Source: an uncultured virus (IMG/VR IMGVR_UViG_3300013845_000001) | Taxonomy: Duplodnaviria > Heunggongvirae > Uroviricota > Caudoviricetes | Length of the DNA: 20,000 nt | Strand: one strand, 5' to 3' | IMG/VR virus record: IMGVR_UViG_3300013845_000001 | Coordinates: 108,565-128,564 of that record | In this document: positions 32 to 19,723 of the stretch, one piece after another | How positions within the stretch are numbered: the first letter of the stretch is position 1 | Layout: every line of letters starts with the position of its first letter | Notes under the pieces: generated by a model | Seen by the model: the letters and a program-made list of their open reading frames with translations, nothing else | Told to the model about the DNA's origin: nothing | Database searches by the model: none | Made by a program: the position numbers and the translations under genes

Positions 32-614
32 TAACTCTGTAATAAGAGTTACGCTTAAATTTCCGAGGGATTTAAGTTGGCCTATCATGGGGAAGAATAT
101 ATCATAATGGCGATATAAACAATTCCATGGGACGAAAGTTTTAAAATAAAAAGAGGATTAATTGCTTGAAAGTGTAATGCTCACTACTCTTCTATTTTAG
201 AAGAAACCGAAAAATAAGGTAAATAAGTCAAACGGTTTACACACCGGAGTGAGATTTCTAGGGATAAAAAATAATTCCCGACAGATGTACAATCACCAAC
301 GAAGCAGCTAGCCCTATCTGTGTATCACGATGTATAATCCGATGGTAACAATTGCGCAAGCAATGTCGGGATAAGATCATTAATGATAGGGAGTGTTCAG
401 AGAGCACCACTCCTCACAGTACATGAAAGCCATATTTCATTGTGCTGTTAACGCATGTTCCAAAGTGTACACGATATCAACGCTTCACGAGGCGCTGGAT
501 ATTATAATGTTGTAAAAGATATGGGCTACAGCCTATCATTGAGCGTAATATGGAAAAGTTAATCGTTTCTATGTTATGTATCAAAATAGTTATGTAGATT
601 CTCCCATATTTTTA
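32..614 (+). ncRNA. Group I ribozyme core and peripheral helices
   Basis: P3 GAGGA 153-157/TCCTC 411-415; P4 TGCTT 163-167/AAGCA 302-306; P6a CCCTATC 312-318/GATAGGG 385-391; P7 G400,(A401 bulge),GAGCA 402-406/TGTTCC 456-461; P8 ACAGTACA 416-423/TGTGCTGT 441-448. P/Q/R/S-like motifs AATTGCTTGAAA, AAGCAGC, GTTCAGAGAGCA, ACGCATGTTCC occur in canonical order. Further helices extend to ~613 (515-525/603-613). Confidence 0.9.
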
Positions 615-3503: not shown

Positions 3504-3532
3504 ATTATACTTCTATTTATTGTTTAATGCAA
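3504..3532 (-). promoter_or_regulatory. Sigma-A promoter of zinc-ribbon gene, overlapping the intron 3' splice site
   Basis: TTGCAT (3532-3527), 17 bp, TATAAT (3509-3504). Confidence 0.7.
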
Positions 3533-6500
3533 CTTAAAGACCTCGGAAATCTTTCAAACGTTTTAAAGAATATAAATAGTAGTAACAATATAGCTGACAG
3601 TTTTAATGCTCTTGAAGTAAGTATGCAAAAGTGTGTGCTCGCCAGCGGAAAGTTAAGTGTTGCACAACTGGATGCAATAAATTCAGGTACCATATGGAAA
3701 ACCAACATTGATGGTACTATGGTTTCTGTATCAGGTCTTTCTAAGACTGAATTAGAAGCAGCAATTTCCACTACCACTCTCTCCGCTTCACAGACCACTG
3801 CAACAGCAACTACAACTGGATTCGGTACTGCCCTTAAAGGTCTTTGGGCAACCATGATGGCAAATCCTTTAATTGCAATAGGAATGGCCGTAACAGCTAT
3901 CTCAACAGCATGGAATATTTATAATCAGTCCATCGAAAAAACAAGACAAGCTTCAGCTGATGCGGCGGGCGCATTAAACGAAACCACCTCATCAATTAAT
4001 GATTATGCTGAAAAGTATAAAAAATTACACGATGAACTTGTCAAGGCAAACACTACCGAAGAACGACAGCATGAAATAAAAAGTGATCTTCTTGCGCTCC
4101 AACAAGAATTAAACGATAAGTACGGAGATGAGTACGGAAAATTAAATCTTGTTACAGATGCTTATAATGATCAGACCGATGCAATCTTGGCAAGAAATAA
4201 AGCCGCTGCACAAAATTACCTTCTTGAAAATAGAAAAGGTATAGCTGATGCGACTAAGCAAATGGAACAAGACCGTACCTATACGCTTGGCAGCACTGGT
4301 AATTTATCAAACGACTATGCAAAAGAAATATATAGTATAGCTTCAAAATACTCTAACCAGGGTATAAAACTAGAGTCTCTTAAAAATAACGGAGTAGATG
4401 CCTATACCATCAAGTTTTTTGGAAATGCCGAAAATGCAGAAAAAGTCATACGTAATCTCTCCAATGAGATTCAAGATCTTGGAAATAAATATGAAGACAA
4501 CAACTTCATCAATGGGTTCTTAGATAACTCAACAAATGCACTTAAAGAGAACCAAAAAATATTAGATAAATACGATGAAATATATAACTCCGCATTGATG
4601 TCTCAAATTGCCACTGATAACGAACTATCAGAAGGTTATAATAAGGCTACAAATGCCGTTAAAGCATATAACGATGCACTAATTTCTGGTGACGAATCTA
4701 AAATATTATCGGCAAGAGATGATCTTAGGGAAGTAAAAAATTCCATTGATTTAACAAGCGATAACTGGAAACGATATGGAAATGTAATGACTGATATTTT
4801 CGATCAGGCTAATACTGGACTATACGATTTTAGAGATGCGCTCTCTTCAAATAACGATAATATCAAAGATTATGCTAAAAATCTAAAAGGTTTATCAAAA
4901 ACAGATGTATTATCCATGGCAAATGATGGAAAAGATGATAGTTTTGATAAAATTGTTGAATCTGCCAATAAATATGGATTAAGTATTAACCAGGTCATTG
5001 ATGAATTGGTCAGATTGAAATTTGTTCAAGATGATGTAGCAAAATCTGGTGAAGTAGCATTCACTCCTCTCTCCAAGCAAGAAGTAATTTCAAACATCAA
5101 CTCTCTATCTGAAGGTTTTGAATCTTTAGATAAAATTATGAAGAGTATATCCGACAAAGATAATCCGTTTGACTATGCTCTACTAGATGACAAAAAGTTC
5201 AAAGATAATTTTAAAGACTTGGGAGAATCATATACCGATTTCGTTGAAAAAGTATCTTCTTCACCAAAAGATATTAATATCACAAAATCTGCATTCAATG
5301 ATCTCGTAACTACATGGATTGATAGTTCTGGTGTATTAAATGGACTTACAGACGAAAACGCCAATCTTGCTACTGCTATGCTTCAGAACATGGGTGTTGC
5401 TAATGCGGAAGAAGTTGTAATGTCTCGATTAGCAATTGCACAGGAGCATTTAGCTGCTGAAAAAGCTTATACGGCAGAAGTAAGTAATGACCTCGCAAAT
5501 GCTACCGCCAGTGAGATTCCAGGAATCATAGATGAGGCAACTCAAAGTGATATCGCTAAGGTTGCGCTTGCCGGGCTGGTATTAGAGAAGGAATTTTTCA
5601 ATGGAAATGCACTTGATACTAGTGGAGATATTCAAAATATCATCTCTCTTATCGGGGTCATCGGTACTGCCAATACAGCACTCAAAGCGTTAAATACCTT
5701 GAAAGCCGGTGGAAATGTAGGAGGCAATATTGGGGGAAAAGAAGGCTATGATGCTCTTGTAAGAAACGCACAACAGGAAGTAGATGAAGCAATAAAGGCT
5801 GCTTCTGAGTATAAGGGCAAGGGTTCAAGTGTCAACGCATCGTATACAGGTGGTACAAAAACAAACAAGCCCTCTTCTGGTTCTAAAAAAGATAAAAAAG
5901 ACACCGAGAAACCTATTGACTGGATTGAGCGACAGCTAAAATTGCTTAAAGATAAAAGGTCAGAACTGGTCAGTAAAATTTCTGACACCTATTCTGCATT
6001 TTCCACAGCTACGCATGATCAAATTCTGGAGCTGGACAAAACACTCATTGACGAATATGCAAACGCAGTTAATCAGTATCAGCAGGAATATGATAAAGCT
6101 GTTAGTAAAATATCGGCTCAAAACAAAGCAAAAATAGAAAATGGGTCTATGTCTGTAGACACTCTTTCTGGTACTGAATTAGAAAATGTGCAATCAGCAA
6201 TGGACGCTTATGATAAACTCGCTGGTACACAGAAGGAACAATCTGAAGCACAAAAAACGCATCTAGATGATATAAAGTCTAAATATGATGCTATTTCAAA
6301 ATCTATTGAGAATGAAAACAATAAATTAAAAGATTCTAATTCTATACTAGAAAGCCAGATGGAATATTACAAGTCATCTGGTATTGTTATCGACTCTTCA
6401 TTTTACGACAGGCTTATTCGGAATACGTCAGGATTAATTTCTAATGCCAGAGATACAATTAGTAATAAACGAGCGGAATTAAGGGATCTGCTTGCTAATG

Positions 6501-8476
6501 GAGCAGACAAGTCCTCACAAGAGTATATTGATCTGAAAAGTGAAATTGCTGATGCAGAGAATAATGTATATGCTCTAAAAAAGGCGCAGGAAGAATACAG
6601 TAACCAACTACTCCAAATGCCAATAGACCACCTCTCCACATTAGTTTCGATGTATCAGGATATTGGAACCGCTATTTCGGATTGGGGAGCCGAGGTTGAG
6701 GCCTCTGGAAAGAAATTGGACGCAGGATATTACCAGCGTTTAATATCTAATAGTGCAAAAGTCGTAGATAATTTGAAAGAACAAGCATCATTAATTGAAG
6801 ATACCATGTCTGAATATGAAGTGGGAAGTGACCGCTACCTTGAACTCTATAATCAGTTACGGTCTGTTAACTCTGAAATGTCTACCACCGTCCAGAACAT
6901 GCGTAAGCTAAATGAAGAGATGTTGAAACTTCCGCTTGAAAATATCGGTAGTTTTTCAACAGAGTTGCAGAAAGTAGCAGATGCATTAAGCAAGGTGCAA
7001 GAAGAACAGGATTTAGTTATCTCGGCAGTCACGAACGCTATTCAGAAACAGATTGATGTTATTAACGACCAGAAAAACGCATACCAGGAAGCTAACGAAT
7101 CACAGAAGAAGGGTTTAAAGGATAAACTTGACTTACTTCAAAAGCAGAATACCCAATTAAAGCGACAGACCGACTATGAACAGTCTTTATATGATCTTCA
7201 AAAAGTGAACCAGCAAGCCACCGAGGCTGTAATTCGTGATGGAGAAAAAGTTTATGAGGTAAACGCAGATAAGCAAAGAGAAGCTCTCGAAAAAGTTCAA
7301 GATGCAAAATTCGCTCTCGAAACCGGAAAGATTCAAGATGAAATTGACGCACTCGATGAAGCGCTTGAAAAACAGAATGAATTATATGATTCACAGATAA
7401 AGAATCTTGAAACTATTGCAGATCGATGGAAACAAATTGCAGAGAACATCAAAATTGCACAGGACGAAGCAAAGGCCGATGATATTCTAGGCGCCGGCTG
7501 GAAAGACAAGATACTCTCTGGTAATGACACTGCCCTATTTAATACATTCTCAGGAATGTACGCAAACACCGCTGAACAGCTCAAAAAGTATCAAGATCAA
7601 ATAGACTCCACAAATAATATTCAGTCATTGTTAGAGGATTACATTGCTTCATATAAGGAAGGAACAATCACTTACGATGAAGCCGTAAAAGGTATCAATA
7701 ATCTCCTATCTCAGCTCAATCAGAAAATGTCTGCCACAGATAATTTGAAGAATATCTTTGATTATTTAGGTACCGTAAATGACACGGCTGCTAACGCAGA
7801 TGCGATTCTGACGGGTATCCAAAGTGGATTGAAAGATACTGCCACTGAGTTACTAAAGTCCTTAGAACAGTACAATAAGAATGCTGGAATGATATCTGAA
7901 TATACGTCTAGTTGGCAGAAACTTACCGACAACGTGTCTTCAATGCTTGAAGTGCTAAAAGAAGTCAGAAACAATTTAGAAGATAGTTATGATTATGAGC
8001 GAGATCGTGACAATGATAATACTAGATATGGAGGAGGAAAAGACGGAAGTCCCGGAACTCCCGGAAAGGGCGACTACGTAAATAGTGGCCCTGGTGTATA
8101 TGCTGATGGCATCAAAAATGGACTTGTTGGGAAATCTACAGATTCTGAGCGAGAAAAGATGCTCAAACATCTTGCTACAAATAATTTGAAGCCGGGAGAA
8201 GTTCCAATACTTGCTCATGAGGGAGAGGCTATCTTTAATGATGAACAACAGAATAATCTTCTAAAGAACTTGGCGTCTGCTAATAGTTTTAAGCCTAATA
8301 TTCCTGATTATGGCAGTTTTCTAAATCAAATTACAGTAAGAGAATCGACTCCAAAGCAAGAGTTTAATTTTGGGGATATCAACATTCAGAAATGTGATGC
8401 TCCAGATCAATTAGCACAAGGAATATTAGATGGTAAACTTGCATTGGCATTAGGACAAAGACTCGGAAAAAGATAA
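3530..8476 (+). CDS. Phage tail tape measure protein, downstream exon (ORF track 3527-8476, 1649 aa)
   Basis: Long Ala/Leu-rich helical and coiled-coil protein with a hydrophobic MANPLIAIGMAVTAI segment and C-terminal GEVPILAHEGEAIF motif, upstream of tail genes. ATG 3527 has no RBS. Confidence 0.9.
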   Translation, partial: QLKDLGNLSNVLKNINSSNNIADSFNALEVSMQKCVLASGKLSVAQLDAINSGTIWKTNIDGTMVSVSGLSKTELEAAISTTTLSASQTTATATTTGFGTALKGLWATMMANPLIAIGMAVTAISTAWNIYNQSIEKTRQASADAAGALNETTSSINDYAEKYKKLHDELVKANTTEERQHEIKSDLLALQQELNDKYGDEYGKLNLVTDAYNDQTDAILARNKAAAQNYLLENRKGIADATKQMEQDRTYTLGSTGNLSNDYAKEIYSIASKYSNQGIKLESLKNNGVDAYTIKFFGNAENAEKVIRNLSNEIQDLGNKYEDNNFINGFLDNSTNALKENQKILDKYDEIYNSALMSQIATDNELSEGYNKATNAVKAYNDALISGDESKILSARDDLREVKNSIDLTSDNWKRYGNVMTDIFDQANTGLYDFRDALSSNNDNIKDYAKNLKGLSKTDVLSMANDGKDDSFDKIVESANKYGLSINQVIDELVRLKFVQDDVAKSGEVAFTPLSKQEVISNINSLSEGFESLDKIMKSISDKDNPFDYALLDDKKFKDNFKDLGESYTDFVEKVSSSPKDINITKSAFNDLVTTWIDSSGVLNGLTDENANLATAMLQNMGVANAEEVVMSRLAIAQEHLAAEKAYTAEVSNDLANATASEIPGIIDEATQSDIAKVALAGLVLEKEFFNGNALDTSGDIQNIISLIGVIGTANTALKALNTLKAGGNVGGNIGGKEGYDALVRNAQQEVDEAIKAASEYKGKGSSVNASYTGGTKTNKPSSGSKKDKKDTEKPIDWIERQLKLLKDKRSELVSKISDTYSAFSTATHDQILELDKTLIDEYANAVNQYQQEYDKAVSKISAQNKAKIENGSMSVDTLSGTELENVQSAMDAYDKLAGTQKEQSEAQKTHLDDIKSKYDAISKSIENENNKLKDSNSILESQMEYYKSSGIVIDSSFYDRLIRNTSGLISNARDTISNKRAELRDLLANGADKSSQEYIDLKSEIADAENNVYALKKAQEEYSNQLLQMPIDHLSTLVSMYQDIGTAISDWGAEVEASGKKLDAGYYQRLISNSAKVVDNLKEQASLIEDTMSEYEVGSDRYLELYNQLRSVNSEMSTTVQNMRKLNEEMLKLPLENIGSFSTELQKVADALSKVQEEQDLVISAVTNAIQKQIDVINDQKNAYQEANESQKKGLKDKLDLLQKQNTQLKRQTDYEQSLYDLQKVNQQATEAVIRDGEKVYEVNADKQREALEKVQDAKFALETGKIQDEIDALDEALEKQNELYDSQIKNLETIADRWKQIAENIKIAQDEAKADDILGAGWKDKILSGNDTALFNTFSGMYANTAEQLKKYQDQIDSTNNIQSLLEDYIASYKEGTITYDEAVKGINNLLSQLNQKMSATDNLKNIFDYLGTVNDTAANADAILTGIQSGLKDTATELLKSLEQYNKNAGMISEYTSSWQKLTDNVSSMLEVLKEVRNNLEDSYDYERDRDNDNTRYGGGKDGSPGTPGKGDYVNSGPGVYADGIKNGLVGKSTDSEREKMLKHLATNNLKPGEVPILAHEGEAIFNDEQQNNLLKNLASANSFKPNIPDYGSFLNQITVRESTPKQEFNFGDINIQKCDAPDQLAQGILDGKLALALGQRLGKR

Positions 8477-8520: not shown

Positions 8521-9165
8521 ATGGTAGGTGATGAATTGAATTTAAATTGGCAAGAAGTATTCAATAAATTTTCTGATGATTTAGTAAATGCTTTTGATTT
8601 ATTTACAGGCAATTTGAAATTAACTAAAGTATTTAAAGCTACTATAATTGAAAAAATAAATGACACAGTATATAAGGTTTTATATAAAAATGCAGAATAT
8701 AAAGTGAAATCATACTATGACTTGATTATTGGAGATATAGTATGGGTATGTGCACCCGGAGGAGATTGGGATTCATTATTCGTGCAAAGTTATAATGGGT
8801 TTTTGGATCGAATAGTCACCACAGATAAGGTTGTAAACAATTTAACCACTAACGTAGCTGGCACTGTATTAGACGGCAGAATGGGAAAGAGTTTAAAGGA
8901 TCAGCTTGATACGGTAAATAGCAATTTGACTAATGTATTGATGCTTAGAGGTTATGCGTCAGGGAACGCAAATAATTATTCAGAAACTGGCATTTATCAG
9001 ATCATATCTTCGGAAGGGTCGACTATGCTGAATCTCGGTTTTAAAGGTCCCAGTATCTTTTTGGTATATGCAACCTCTAACTACATAGCTCAAGAACAGA
9101 TTTATGCAGATGGATCACTTAAAAGGTTCAGGAATAGCGCTGGAGAATGGTCGGCATGGAAATGA
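8521..9165 (+). CDS. Phage tail spike/fibre-like protein with switchable C-terminus (current tip pyocin-knob-like)
   Basis: Linker VVNNLTTNVAGTVLDGRMGKSLKDQLDTVNSNL typical of fibre proteins. Tip GNANNYSETGIY...RFRNSAGEWSAWK. Real start may be TTG 8536 after the AGGTGA RBS. Confidence 0.75.
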   Translation: MVGDELNLNWQEVFNKFSDDLVNAFDLFTGNLKLTKVFKATIIEKINDTVYKVLYKNAEYKVKSYYDLIIGDIVWVCAPGGDWDSLFVQSYNGFLDRIVTTDKVVNNLTTNVAGTVLDGRMGKSLKDQLDTVNSNLTNVLMLRGYASGNANNYSETGIYQIISSEGSTMLNLGFKGPSIFLVYATSNYIAQEQIYADGSLKRFRNSAGEWSAWK

Positions 9166-9392
9166 TCATTTCGTCCACACAGTAGCCCAGACACCATCAA
9201 TACTTCTAGCATACACAAGCGGACCATCGTCGTAAATTTCAAGCTGGTAAAAAGATGTGGCTGACACGGTGAACCTTATGTATGTTCTATCGCCTGCACG
9301 TCCAAATGTAACATTGGCTAATGCATCTAAGCCACCAGTAACTTTTCCGATTAAATCGCTTTTATCAGCTTTGTTATTTAAATTGCTATTTA
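8915..9392. repeat. Invertible segment bounded by 13-bp perfect inverted repeats TAAATAGCAATTT
   Basis: Repeat at 8915-8927 (+) and 9380-9392 (-). Both copies are read in the same frame (xNSNL). Confidence 0.85.
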
Positions 9393-9393
9393 A
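9166..9393 (-). other. Silent alternative C-terminal cassette (75 aa, no start codon)
   Basis: Open frame LNSNLNNKADKSDLIGKVTGGLDALANVTFGRAGDRTYIRFTVSATSFYQLEIYDDGPLVYARSIDGVWATVWTK*. Its stop abuts the stop of 8521-9165 (AAATGA|TCATTT). Confidence 0.85.
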
Positions 9394-9427: not shown

Positions 9428-9817
9428 ATGGATAAATTAATTTTATATGATTCAACATCAATTGAAATAGAGGAGGAAAGTTCCGAATATTCTTTTACAA
9501 AATCTTTTAATTCCATTGATGAGTTTTATACAACACTCATACTACTTACTGAAACAAATCTGAGTTCATATACTATAAAAAATAGTTCAGGACTTATTTC
9601 TGCTACATACTCAAATAAAAGATGTAAGTCAACTTCCGTGACAATAACATGGAACGATGACGAAGAAATATCTGGTTTTCTCGTAGTATTCACATTGGAA
9701 GATATAGATTTAATTGAAAAGGAGCTTAAAAATTTAAGAGCTAGCCAAAAAGCTCAAAACTCTGCAATTATTGAACTTGCAGCGCTAATTACAGAATTAA
9801 AAGGAGGTACTGAATAA
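9428..9817 (+). CDS. Hypothetical phage tail-associated protein (possible fibre assembly chaperone)
   Basis: AAAGGA RBS. C-terminal coiled coil ending AIIELA. Lies between the fibre gene and a CD1375-like gene. Confidence 0.7.
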   Translation: MDKLILYDSTSIEIEEESSEYSFTKSFNSIDEFYTTLILLTETNLSSYTIKNSSGLISATYSNKRCKSTSVTITWNDDEEISGFLVVFTLEDIDLIEKELKNLRASQKAQNSAIIELAALITELKGGTE

Positions 9818-9921
9818 TGGTAGATTTATATGTAAATATGATTATAAATGACGAATATAGTATAGATGACGTTCTTGAACCATGGAGAGCCGCAGTTGAA
9901 GAGGCGTTAATGAAGCGATAA
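9817..9921 (+). CDS. CD1375/XkdX-like small phage protein (34 aa, MVDLYVNMIINDEYSIDDVLEPWRAAVEEALMKR), not in ORF track
   Basis: AAGGAGG RBS, TAATG stop/start overlap, Y..I....IDDV...WR..VE pattern. Confidence 0.75.
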   Translation: MVDLYVNMIINDEYSIDDVLEPWRAAVEEALMKR

Positions 9922-15526: not shown

Positions 15527-15626
15527 GGTTTGGGCATTCAGGGTAATACACTGAATCTCTAAAAAAGAATACCTGAATGTCATCGGAAAAGAGTATAAGA
15601 AAGAATAATATGCATATATAACATTA

Positions 15627-15668
15627 AGGGAATAGTTGAGTATAATACTCTTCTATTCCCTATTTTTT
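15627..15668 (+). terminator. Intrinsic terminator ending the tail operon (possibly bidirectional)
   Basis: AGGGAATAG..GAGTA-taa-TACTC..CTATTCCCT followed by ATTTTTT. Confidence 0.7.
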
Positions 15669-15687
15669 ACTATATAAAAGCACTCTT

Positions 15688-16623
15688 TCATGCGTCATCT
15701 TCTTTAATTCTACATTCTCTTGGTAACTTGTTTTCTCTCACACTTTTAAACGTTGGTTGACGAATACCCTCTTTTTCAGAAGGCATATATTCAATAGTAC
15801 ATACCATTGGTTCCATCCATGTCGCATCAGCATACCCTTTTAAGTTTTTTATAGGACAATTAGAAATTCTCATTCCGTGTTGGTTGAGCTTAGCGATACT
15901 TACGCCAAGAGAAACGTGGTTAGTGATAATTAATTCATCGTCGTCATTGTACTTCGCCAGAATCAGCGTTGTCATACTGTTCTTATTAGGAATATATCCT
16001 ATGCAGACAAAATCTTCTTCTTTAAGCACTTTGATCTTCTTCCAATCCCTAGATCGCTTTCCAAACCAATATAGACTTGCCTTCTTTTTTCCAACGACTC
16101 CTTCCAAGCCATTTTCCTCTGCAAAATTGTATATCGCAATTCCATTCTTTTCAACGTATCGAGATTTTGACAATATGTCACTTTCAGATATTACTTCGTC
16201 TAATAACTTTTTACGCTCAATTAGTGGTAAATCAGTTACTTGTTTATCTTTATAGTAAAGTATATCATAAACTACAAAATTTGCTGGGTGTTTTTTATAC
16301 GCTAGTTCTATCTTAAAGGGATCAGTTAAAACCGTCCTTCTTTGAACTTCGTAAAAATCCGGCTTCCCATTAACCAATACGTTTAACTCCCCGTCGAGTA
16401 TGCATTTCTGTTTGCAGCCCTTAAACAATAATTCTAATTCCGGAAACCTTGACAACAAGCTCATATTTCGCTTATTTCTCAAATCGGTAGATTTATAATC
16501 ATTATAAGCAATGCATCTGATCCCATCAAATTTAAGCTCAAAGATAGAATCCACATCATCATACGGATCAACTCTTTCAGATATAAGCATGGGCTTAATA
16601 CCCTTTTCATCGAAAATATCCAT
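15688..16623 (-). CDS. ATP-dependent DNA ligase (LigD/LigC-type ligase domain only)
   Basis: Motif I ELKFDGIR, III LDGEL, IIIa VYDILY, IV EGVVGK, V WKKIK, VI IRQPTFKSVR. Confidence 0.92.
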   Translation of the reverse strand: MDIFDEKGIKPMLISERVDPYDDVDSIFELKFDGIRCIAYNDYKSTDLRNKRNMSLLSRFPELELLFKGCKQKCILDGELNVLVNGKPDFYEVQRRTVLTDPFKIELAYKKHPANFVVYDILYYKDKQVTDLPLIERKKLLDEVISESDILSKSRYVEKNGIAIYNFAEENGLEGVVGKKKASLYWFGKRSRDWKKIKVLKEEDFVCIGYIPNKNSMTTLILAKYNDDDELIITNHVSLGVSIAKLNQHGMRISNCPIKNLKGYADATWMEPMVCTIEYMPSEKEGIRQPTFKSVRENKLPRECRIKEDDA

Positions 16624-16702
16624 TATACCCTCTTGTTTCGCTTTGCCATATTATCAGTGATCTAATTATTGTACTAATAACCGAAAATCCTATACATGCA
16701 CT

Positions 16703-17014
16703 TTATATTACCATGATCCACTTACACGATTCCATATAAAAAACCAGTTTAAATTCATGACGTATGCCGCCAATGATTGCATCACAGTGAAATTCTTTTG
16801 ATGGAATTCCATTATAATTTTTATCTTCAGTGCATTTTATAATTATATCAGATATTGTTTGTATCACGCCATCATCGCCTTCAAATTTGAAACTTAGGGG
16901 GCGAGGGCTGCAATTAGCGGTAAACCAAGCCTTGCAAGCAATATTGTACTTCTTACCGTGTAGCTCTCCGCTATCAATCTCTTTTACATTTGTTCCAATC
17001 CCAAATGCACTCAT
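16703..17014 (-). CDS. Small beta-rich protein downstream of dinB (putative polymerase accessory factor)
   Basis: P.P.SF and terminal L.F......W pattern. Operonic with the Y-family polymerase. Confidence 0.7.
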   Translation of the reverse strand: MSAFGIGTNVKEIDSGELHGKKYNIACKAWFTANCSPRPLSFKFEGDDGVIQTISDIIIKCTEDKNYNGIPSKEFHCDAIIGGIRHEFKLVFYMESCKWIMVI

Positions 17015-17027
17015 GTTACCTTACCAC

Positions 17028-18290
17028 CTATAATATATTTTGAGTTTCATAATTCACGGTTCTCTTTTCACGACTGATTCCGCCGCTCATATGGTCAACT
17101 TTATCGGCCTTAATAAAACTTGCTCTTACAATGGAATCTGTGCCAAACCTTTTCCTTATATCGTCCACCGCTCTATCTAGACGCTCCTGTTTCTCATAAT
17201 CCATATCATCAAATAGGTTGAGCTGTCTTGTATCTTCAGTTACTACTTGGCTGGTATGAATACCAAGATGTCGGATTGGAACCTTATCCCACATTTCATC
17301 AAACACTTGGCAAGCTGATTCGTAGATTTCTCTTGTTATGTTGGTGGCAGTTTTCAGTTTCTTTTGGTGGCTGTAATACCCAAGGTTATAATCCCTTATT
17401 CCAACAGATATTACTTTGATTTTCACGTTGTTATCTCTTAATCTTGCACTAACTGTCTCCGCTAATGAAAGTAAAACTAATTTTGCAGTATTGACATCCG
17501 TAACATCAAATGCGATTGTGGTACTGTTACCATAGCCCTTATTTGGTGGCGGTACAGGTTCAACTGCCGAGAAATCAATTCCATTTGCAAAAGACCATAT
17601 TACTTCCCCGTGTTTACCAAGATGAGATTTAATTATTGATAGATCAGTTTGTGCTAACTCTCCTATTGTTTTAATGCCTAGATTGTTAAGTTTACGCGCA
17701 GTAGCTCTACCAACAAAAAATAGGTCAGATGCAGGAAGCACCCACATTTTATCCTTTATTTCACTTAACCACAGTGTATGCACCTTATCAGGCTTTTTAA
17801 AGTCTGATGCCATCTTAGCCAGGACTTTATTATTTGAAATTCCAATATTTACCGTAAAGCCAAGTTCTCTATAAATACGCTCTCTTATTTTATTTGCAAT
17901 ATCTTCTGGCTTTCCAAACAATGATTCTGTGCCAGTCATATCCATGTACGCCTCATCGATGGAATATTGTTCTACAACGGGGCCATATTCCTTTAAAATA
18001 TTTATGAAAGCTTTTGATGATTTTTGATATAGATTATAATTAGGAGGAACAAGAACGAGGTCAGGACACTTTCTTAATGCTTCAGGTACGGATTCTCCTG
18101 TTTTTATATTATATTTCTTTGCTGGTATACTTTTCGCAAGTATAATACCATGTCTTTTTGTAACGTCACCACCAACCGCTGACGGTATGTTTCGCAGGTC
18201 TAAATTCCCACCCAAATGGTGTATCCGATATACTGCTTCCCAACTTAGAAAGGCGGAGTTTACATCGATATGAAAAATTACTTTATTCAC
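17028..18290 (-). CDS. dinB: Y-family DNA polymerase (Pol IV/UmuC-like)
   Basis: HIDVNSAF, YSIDEA, LAKMASDFKKP, clamp motif QLNLF, LDRAVDDIRKRFG. Confidence 0.93.
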   Translation of the reverse strand: MNKVIFHIDVNSAFLSWEAVYRIHHLGGNLDLRNIPSAVGGDVTKRHGIILAKSIPAKKYNIKTGESVPEALRKCPDLVLVPPNYNLYQKSSKAFINILKEYGPVVEQYSIDEAYMDMTGTESLFGKPEDIANKIRERIYRELGFTVNIGISNNKVLAKMASDFKKPDKVHTLWLSEIKDKMWVLPASDLFFVGRATARKLNNLGIKTIGELAQTDLSIIKSHLGKHGEVIWSFANGIDFSAVEPVPPPNKGYGNSTTIAFDVTDVNTAKLVLLSLAETVSARLRDNNVKIKVISVGIRDYNLGYYSHQKKLKTATNITREIYESACQVFDEMWDKVPIRHLGIHTSQVVTEDTRQLNLFDDMDYEKQERLDRAVDDIRKRFGTDSIVRASFIKADKVDHMSGGISREKRTVNYETQNIL

Positions 18291-18308
18291 ATAATCACCT
18301 CTAGAGAT

Positions 18309-18329
18309 ATTGTACTCGAATGTATGTTC
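18309..18329 (-). promoter_or_regulatory. SOS (LexA) box and -10 element of dinB operon
   Basis: GAACATACATTC (18329-18318), one mismatch to Firmicute GAAC-N4-GTTC, next to TACAAT (18314-18309). Confidence 0.7.
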
Positions 18330-18347
18330 GTTTGATAGTGGAAATTA

Positions 18348-18370
18348 AAGGAAGCATTATTTGCTTCCTT
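18348..18370 (-). terminator. Terminator hairpin after the lexA operon
   Basis: AAGGAAGCA-ttatt-TGCTTCCTT. Confidence 0.65.
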
Positions 18371-18375
18371 ATTTT

Positions 18376-18705
18376 TTACTTATATGCCGGTTCAAATCCG
18401 CGTTGCTCATTATAAGCATATTGCAATAGGTCATATAATTCATTTGTAATAGTTCCCATACCATTATATCCATCAAGCATATCAATTATTTTTGATGCAT
18501 ATTCCGATGGCGCTGATTTTCCATCGATTCCCCTATATAGTTCTTCCTTTATTTTCTCCAAGTTTTCATGCTTCTGTGGTAGTGGAAGGCCATACATCTT
18601 CGCCAAGATTCCTATCGCACAACAACACTCATTAACAGATGTCAATGTAATCCCTTGAAATCTTGATTTTATTTCGATTGCTTGTTTATTTATAGAGAAT
18701 ACCAT
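18376..18705 (-). CDS. Hypothetical protein (109 aa) downstream of lexA
   Basis: AAAGGA RBS, followed by a terminator. No family recognised. Confidence 0.7.
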   Translation of the reverse strand: MVFSINKQAIEIKSRFQGITLTSVNECCCAIGILAKMYGLPLPQKHENLEKIKEELYRGIDGKSAPSEYASKIIDMLDGYNGMGTITNELYDLLQYAYNEQRGFEPAYK

Positions 18706-18735
18706 GTTGATTTTCCTTTGTGTTTTTATATTTTA

Positions 18736-19356
18736 TCAATGAATACCCGGTCTAAATAAACCTATAACTTTTCCTAAAATCGCTACCTGATCTACTATAA
18801 TTGGTTCCATTGAATCATTTTCTGGCTGTAAGCGGTAATGTCCGTCCTCCTTGAAGAATCGCTTTACTGTGGCTGAGTCCCCTACTAACGCAACAACTAT
18901 ATCTCCATTTTCTGCCATTGGACATTGTTCTATAATGATCTGATCTCCTTCGAGAATACCTGCGTTAATCATACTATTCCCCTTTACGTTTAACATAAAT
19001 GTCTCGGCATTTGGGAGAAGGTCAGATGGTATAGGGTAATAATTTTCAATGTTTTCCTCAGCATATAAAGGTTGACCAGCAGCCACGGTTCCAAGGAGCG
19101 GAACTTTTACAACGTCCCGTTGCTCTAAATTAAAACAATCTTCCATAATTTCGATAGCTCGTGGCTTGGTTGGGTCTCTTTTAATATATCCCTTTTCCTC
19201 AAGTGTCTCCAGGTGAGAGTGGACGGATGATGTTGATTTTAAACTGACCGCTTCGCAAATCTCTCTGACTGCTGGTGGATATCCTCTATTATTTATTGAC
19301 TCTTTTACATAATCAAATATTTGCTTTTGTATTTTACTCAATCTTATATTTCTCAT
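18736..19356 (-). CDS. lexA: LexA repressor (206 aa; start corrected to ATG 19356)
   Basis: GYPPAVREIC...STSSVHSHL winged HTH, RDPTKPRAIE, Ala-Gly site VAAGQP, catalytic GNSM and TVKRF. AGGTGGG RBS. Confidence 0.95.
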   Translation of the reverse strand: MRNIRLSKIQKQIFDYVKESINNRGYPPAVREICEAVSLKSTSSVHSHLETLEEKGYIKRDPTKPRAIEIMEDCFNLEQRDVVKVPLLGTVAAGQPLYAEENIENYYPIPSDLLPNAETFMLNVKGNSMINAGILEGDQIIIEQCPMAENGDIVVALVGDSATVKRFFKEDGHYRLQPENDSMEPIIVDQVAILGKVIGLFRPGIH

Positions 19357-19381
19357 AGGTATGCCCACCTTTCTATATGGT

Positions 19382-19420
19382 ACTATACCATATGTAATTT
19401 GAAAATGCAAACATATGTTC
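19382..19420 (-). promoter_or_regulatory. lexA promoter with overlapping SOS box
   Basis: TTGCAT (19410-19405), 17 bp, TG-G-TATAGT (19390-19382). GAACATATGTTT at 19420-19409. Confidence 0.8.
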
Positions 19421-19477
19421 TGCTCTTCACAAAAAAATATGCCGAAAACCCTCATTGCGAAGATTCTCGGCATAAAT

Positions 19478-19723
19478 TCAGCTACCCTGTTCAACTTCAG
19501 CTTTGGATATAAGTAATTCCTTTAATTCAGCTAAGGACATGTTTTGCTCTTCTAGTATTGATGAAACCTCTTTAAACTCTTCTAACTTAATTTCATCTTG
19601 TATTTGCTTCTCTTTTTCCTGAAGCGTTTTGATTGAGGCTTTATATTGCTCTATCGAATCTTGTGTGTCTTTTAGTTCATCTCTGAGTTTTACGAGTGGT
19701 GATTTGCGAACTCCACGTGGCAT
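19478..19723 (-). CDS. Small coiled-coil hypothetical protein (81 aa)
   Basis: AGGAGG RBS, TGGTATAAT at 19767-19759, downstream hairpin at ~19438-19474 with a T tract. Confidence 0.8.
   Translation of the reverse strand: MPRGVRKSPLVKLRDELKDTQDSIEQYKASIKTLQEKEKQIQDEIKLEEFKEVSSILEEQNMSLAELKELLISKAEVEQGS

Follow-up and report, generated by a model that had tools for sequence, protein, structure and literature searches.

A two-state tail-tip switch in a putative Lacrimispora phage that probably depends on a recombinase supplied in trans

The 3' end of a tail gene in an uncultured phage was examined and is probably (probability about 0.6) a Rin-like two-state tip switch that depends on a recombinase supplied in trans. 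The window covers the final 20 kb of a phage record of 128,564 bp that is complete, carries direct terminal repeats and has a GC content of 34%. A Lacrimispora-like host is inferred, as a named homologue of the switch-bearing tail protein came from L. indolis and the tail region was matched in 29 of 49 Lacrimispora genomes, with long matches at no more than 75% DNA identity. The proposal of an earlier note, that this is a tip-swapping recombination cassette, was supported, and the same site was found flipped in other phages.

A perfect 13-bp inverted repeat, TAAATAGCAATTT, was present at 8915-8927 (+) and 9380-9392 (-), and both copies read N-S-N-L in frame, as the earlier note had stated. The core of the site is palindromic save for two positions. 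These two switch sites were the only exact copies in the 128,564-bp genome, in which four copies with one mismatch were also found. The left NSNL begins after 132 codons of the ORF at 8521-9165, at an offset of 0 mod 3. These codons (8521..8916, +) form the constant region, about 95 aa belonging to the small post-TMP protein of this phage family followed by a tail-fibre repeat (PF22337 match over residues 104-134, E 3e-4, below the cut-off). Counted from NSNL, the expressed tip A (8917..9165, +) has 82 aa, and the silent, start-less tip B (9166..9390, -) has 74 aa. On the minus strand, the frame 9393-9166 runs through 75 codons without a stop, with a TAG directly upstream and the first start codon not before codon 43. 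The two stops adjoin (TGA 9163-9165, TCA 9166-9168), and the anatomy claimed for an inversion exchanging the tips was thus confirmed. Perfect inverted repeats of at least 13 bp, spaced 100-1000 nt apart, numbered nine in the genome; 30 shuffled sequences gave 4.1 on average and 10 at most, and the 13-bp repeat by itself is within chance expectation. The case for a switch rests on the reading frame, the abutting stops and the conservation in other phages.

The description of tip A as pyocin-knob-like was borne out by its AlphaFold model (pLDDT 90), which matched the R2 pyocin fibre 6cu2 with a Z of 11.9 and an rmsd of 1.6 A over 77 aligned residues. Each of the eleven best structure matches was a fibre, spike or baseplate protein of a phage or pyocin, and tip A probably recognises the host. 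Structure prediction gave a less clear result for tip B, which was modelled as a five-stranded beta sheet (pLDDT 81). The fold search with tip B returned nothing at E 0.001 or Z 5 (best Z 4.9), and its atlas matches to fibre clusters were of low recognition and are leads only. Both tips are presumed to bind receptors.

The location of the switch directly after the tape-measure (TMP) coding region (3527..8476, +; PHROG tape-measure matches) had been called unusual. The location is real, and is accounted for by the placement of a fibre repeat and a tip on the end of a small post-TMP gene. Stand-alone relatives of the small protein were found, of 113 aa (48% identical) and 119 aa (41%), the former directly after the TMP gene in a related prophage; no family was found for the N-terminal domain. 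Ahead of the TMP frame, a 21-nt inverted repeat (90%; window 59-79 and 3530-3550) surrounds 3.5 kb of accessory genes. The 129-aa ORF after the switch (9428..9817, +), which is without a convincing family match and is kept in the relative L010, is a possible fibre assembly factor, judging by position. It is followed by a 34-aa ORF (9817..9921, +), read from the sequence, with a weak phrog_1382 match (E 0.04). The genome end (15688-19494) encodes an ATP-dependent ligase, a DinB/UmuC-type polymerase, a DUF3837 protein and a LexA-like repressor, and this gene order is preserved, the polymerase excepted, in the related prophage G379.

Both orientations were seen in two other groups of phages, with breaks that coincide exactly with the sites, and the site is a real crossover point. 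Between the near-identical phages L061 and L062, the segment between the sites is reversed at 100% identity and the flanks are colinear at 100% and 96%. Relative to L048, positions 5001-5488 are reversed in L045 and L049, at 96% and 90% identity. As these five phages come from one data set, they do not represent independent studies. The two orientations that the earlier note proposed to look for were found in other phages; this phage was seen in a single orientation, in one contig that spans the cassette in run X1, possibly its source, and no flipped copy of it was found. No strand-changing joint was present in the contigs of four runs, and contigs lose rare variants. In run X2, four contigs depart from the window at 8927, the end of the left site, and depth falls from more than 100 to about 10 across the cassette. 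In the X14 contig, 8904-9378 is replaced by 586 other letters, and the contig rejoins the window at 9379, beside the right site.

The tips also differ among close relatives of the phage. Ten of 19 protein-search matches were 90-99% identical over the constant region; one of these carried tip A and the other nine carried nine other tips, with the change always at NSNL. As ten tips are beyond the reach of a two-state inversion, tips appear to be traded between genomes as well. A 99% copy of tip A lies at the start of the unrelated contig L004, tail-to-tail with the tip that is expressed in L011, which is related to this phage at 77-79% identity. Tip A is also C-terminal on P0013 and P0018. Tip B is intact and has a 96% copy, also silent, in the unrelated 41.5-kb phage L021, from which it differs by four synonymous and three non-synonymous codons. 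Tip B, the hidden cassette of the earlier note, has homologues at the ends of the full-length proteins P0022 (80%) and P0023 (69%). The N-termini of P0013 (tip A) and P0022 (tip B) are 95% identical, and their junction is the variant NSDL. A fusion of the N-terminus of this phage to tip B was absent from two protein searches (19 and 2 matches).

Pattern and homology searches yielded at least 54 non-redundant exact AAATAGCAATTT pairs, 200-1200 nt apart and mostly in phages, with the window pair counted. This sample is biased, the viral collection having been scanned for gaps of 438-499 nt and the Lacrimispora regions having been hand-picked among the matches listed. Two frames of at least 45 aa were present in 48 pairs, and their stops lay 0-11 nt apart in 41 of the 48 and abutted exactly in 10. 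The 102 tips formed 65 clusters at 60% identity. Unrelated phages with sizes of 30-130 kb share this site with a host Rhs-linked locus, and near-identical tips are common to them. In the 49 Lacrimispora genomes the 12-mer occurred 293 times, against 54 for a reversed control; among 300 other genomes of the family, 10 had a match to the 14-mer, about control level. In an alignment of 80 sites, whose invariant core is a consequence of the search pattern, the next position was A in 95% and the outer arms were weakly T-rich and A-rich. Both window sites agree with the consensus core, and the aligned sites would be compatible with a 13+6+13 tyrosine-recombinase site. A fibre-context pattern scan gave mostly chance matches; six of 20 loci were fibre-type genes, three of the six being already in the set. 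Two unpaired site matches in L. sinapis JR3 were rejected, as they had no tip frame and one overlapped the start of a housekeeping gene.

The absence of an invertase from the window stands: none of its 18 ORFs had a recombinase family match, and genome-wide searches placed none there. The earlier note had also suggested a search for further sites beside a recombinase. No further exact site exists in this genome, and such an arrangement was found in G379, in which a 348-aa PF00589 XerA-like recombinase lies 29 bp from an exact site. The TMP of this prophage is 46% identical to that of the phage described here, and its ligase 86%. The G379 recombinase is located between the tail genes and the ligase, accompanied by a spare tip pair, and the window has a 161-bp gap (15527..15687, no strand) at the equivalent position. 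The tips that it adjoins are also carried by the relatives P0004 and P0009. A 57% relative of the 348-aa enzyme adjoins an NSDL-variant pair, and sister enzymes adjoin NSDL and mixed sites. The XerA-like enzyme is, on present sequence data, a candidate linked to the site by adjacency only.

The 348-aa enzyme had no match in the phage described here (best E 0.01) and no match at all in four of five further site-bearing phages. Within the 49 Lacrimispora genomes, the 348-aa type was present in one, plus the one 57% relative, and the 339-aa sister type, at 90% identity or more, in seven; the latter was without a close relative in the viral collection. L. sinapis JR3 contained three site pairs but neither of the two enzymes, and supply in trans may therefore be rare. 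By BLAST against 18 seed proteins, among 37 pairs flanked by 3 kb on each side, 28 had no tyrosine recombinase within 3 kb, seven had an integrase-type gene, and two, both in G379, had the 348-aa enzyme (at 29 and 648 bp). Two kinds of neighbouring recombinase were set aside. A 447-aa enzyme at the L008/L086 pair is integrase-like (25% identical to the 458-aa enzyme of this phage), is followed by a viral-Rep gene and was read as a satellite integrase. At six pairs a recombinase lies about 1.6 kb off, past the lysin; five precede repressor-type genes and one a Rep gene, and all were read as integrases. Possible satellites, small elements that encode an integrase, an ATPase and a Rep of viral type, were observed at the ends of site-bearing prophages (L086:11243-14858, L054:877-4432).

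The main rival reading, which we consider unlikely, is that the pair was acquired in one piece from a phage with a working switch and is in practice never inverted in this phage, with the tip variety of the relatives arising from ordinary homologous or illegitimate recombination. The single orientation of this phage would fit such a frozen relic, as would the relative L010, in which the N-terminus is 99% identical and is joined to one tip with no second site. The short or broken partner tips of some pairs (L013, L064, L177) and the 28 pairs with no tyrosine recombinase nearby point the same way. Against it, the tips switch exactly at the 12-13-bp site, with no longer sequence in common, and this length is short for RecA-type exchange. 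The silent tip is, moreover, intact both here and in L021, a phage without a tyrosine recombinase.

It is quite improbable that a distant recombinase of the phage itself inverts the segment. Three tyrosine recombinases (458, 352 and 303 aa) with PF00589 matches are encoded at C1:53-1429, 84072-85130 and 49741-50652, and R-K-HxxR-H-Y, which we take to be the recombinase residue motif, was visible by eye in all three. Precedent for such an arrangement comes from the flipped phages G383, G384 and G029, which have a distant XerA-like recombinase among apparent replication genes. In a tree of 28 proteins, however, all three fell outside a 19-member group (support 88/98, not starred) that holds the 348-aa and sister enzymes, one enzyme linked to hsdS and the distant XerA-like ones that several site-bearing phages encode; long branches make the placement of the three uncertain. 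The 458-aa recombinase lies at an att-like end and groups with an integrase, and the 352-aa recombinase groups with a gene of G387, which has the dedicated enzyme too. Two pair-bearing phages, G006 and G026 (100% complete), were also without a PF00589 match. Among the related elements, the 116-kb prophage L178 (G387:C1:69683-73237) encodes a recombinase closely related to the XerS-like one of the host, with 100/100 support in the tree. In L180 (G384:C1:37616-41095), one of the flipped phages, an XerA-like recombinase is split into frames of 148 and 214 aa; in its twin L179 it is whole.

A conserved host recombinase (XerD, an XerS-like enzyme or a RecV-like master invertase) working on the sites would account for the occurrence of a single site in numerous unrelated phages as well as in the host Rhs-linked locus, and RecV of C. 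difficile is described in the accessible part of PMC5903667 as working on distant switches. We regard this explanation as very unlikely, as no site-like sequence (two mismatches or fewer) that would hint at a host dif was found in G033 within 16 kb of the terminus XerS-like gene or 8 kb of xerD, a small 191-aa RecV-like candidate was present in only five of the 49 genomes, and the 14-mer was near control level elsewhere in the family. That the inverted repeat arose by chance and the open frame is incidental is scarcely credible: at 34% GC, this genome has many 13-bp inverted repeats, but the same site, frame and tail-to-tail layout recur at dozens of loci, both tips are conserved in unrelated phages, and the flipped pairs in other phages have already refuted it.

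On the preferred reading, the switch is intact and depends on a XerA-like tyrosine recombinase that likely comes from another prophage in the cell or from a host locus. This enzyme would exchange strands in the central TAGCAA core, and inversion of the 452-nt core would replace tip A by tip B on the same 132 residues, giving a 206-aa isoform. Recombination between sites on two genomes would shift tips from phage to phage, and a change of tip would likely alter host recognition. More tentatively, the 65 or more tip types may form an open pool with one docking site. The recombinase, borne by a minority of prophages and host loci, might then be a public good in a genus-wide, integron-like network of host-range cassettes. 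Its flipping and trading of receptor-binding tips would serve phages that lack the enzyme, unrelated families of phages and also a Rhs-linked gene of the host.

The Mu Gin, P1 Cin and p15B Min systems have a serine invertase adjoining the segment, a Fis-bound enhancer and 26-bp gix-type sites. The comparison with Gin and Cin made in the earlier note holds for the swapping of tips, and fails for the enzyme, since the one found next to the site in other genomes is of the XerA-like tyrosine type and not a serine invertase. PF00239 (serine recombinase) had no match in this phage genome, unlike in those systems, and was matched in two of 32 other records, both as frames of 470-530 aa. Only a short tip is exchanged here; in Mu, P1 and p15B, inversion exchanges the C-terminal part of the tail fibre, according to the accessible text of PMC6109161.

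The same portion of PMC6109161 describes the Rin shufflon of Bifidobacterium prophages, in which the enzyme flanks a multi-cassette array with the rix site TTCCCTAACCC, and which is one of two modules in the post-TMP region. A related system in Eggerthella lenta has the site ttccgtat, as given in the part of PMC8778435 that was available. As far as Rin is described there, it shares with the window a constant N-terminus and a short asymmetric inverted site within the gene, dissimilar start-less tips of about 75-120 aa in a post-TMP tail module, and an Xer-like tyrosine recombinase distinct from the integrase (here, in the relative G379). Unlike Rin as there described, the window has the site TAAATAGCAATTT and not TTCCCTAACCC and carries two tips, and its site and tips are common to unrelated phages and a host locus. 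The complete genome lacks an enzyme of the Rin type, a flanking enzyme being seen in G379. Judged from sequence, the window switch is one that would work like Rin, and is not a Rin member, as the site is different and no enzyme flanks it.

The window switch most resembles, by analogy, the second locus of Bb423phi2/689b-1, within what could be seen of PMC6109161. There, a two-state inversion of about 500 bp at the 3' end of a gene has no flanking recombinase, and an invertase in trans was proposed; the site is the 8-bp CAGGGTTA, the genes have no identified function and two phages were compared. The present case differs from that description in the fibre-knob fold, the genus-wide site and a candidate enzyme by adjacency in a relative. 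A recombinase acting on distant switches is also a feature of RecV (C. difficile) and Mpi (B. fragilis), which, in the part of PMC5903667 available, are conserved host enzymes of host surface and flagellar switches; no conserved host equivalent was found here. In the literature as far as it was accessible, the site sequence and any account of a Lacrimispora/Enterocloster system were not found, and supplementary inversion catalogues (e.g. PMC9881135) may list such loci.

Tail-tip inversion is already known, and the enzyme-less case has been proposed once, in the accessible part of PMC6109161. New here are the scale, with one site in unrelated 30-130 kb phages and a host locus, and the candidate enzyme. 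If the enzyme works in trans, the host range of a phage would hinge on the other prophages in the same cell. One gene and a 480-bp reporter now suffice to test trans-driven phase variation in phages. The tips would also provide a natural set of interchangeable small domains for receptor mapping in Lachnospiraceae.

A conserved chromosomal locus was observed in many Lacrimispora species, in which a short fibre-like gene accompanies those for a 350-aa protein and for a Rhs-repeat protein of 1100-1800 aa. The NSNL/NSDL tip switch recurs in this locus, which sometimes also contains a 339-aa recombinase and is apparently a host use of the phage tip-switch system (L064 at G033:C1:3619900-3627200, L090, L099, L121-L125, L166-L169, L172 and L173). 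Orphan tip pairs without a fibre start were found at scattered places (L004:1-477, L059:5001-5512, L080-L082, L086:10237-10930, L095, L097, L098 and L174), up to three to four pairs per 25-40 kb. They often lie at prophage junctions or between the TMP and the distal tail genes, and no target-site duplications were evident at them by eye. In some site-bounded segments the spare tip is replaced by cargo, an acyltransferase-3 gene (PF01757) or a gene with a weak hydrolase match (L085:4450-6483, L088:4442-5557). Tandem 21-bp repeats of the site (NSNLDNV repeated) were present in the fibre gene of the host locus (L167:1093-1146, L168:5905-5958, L169:4982-5014 and L173:6574-6648), and are possibly scars of repeated recombination.
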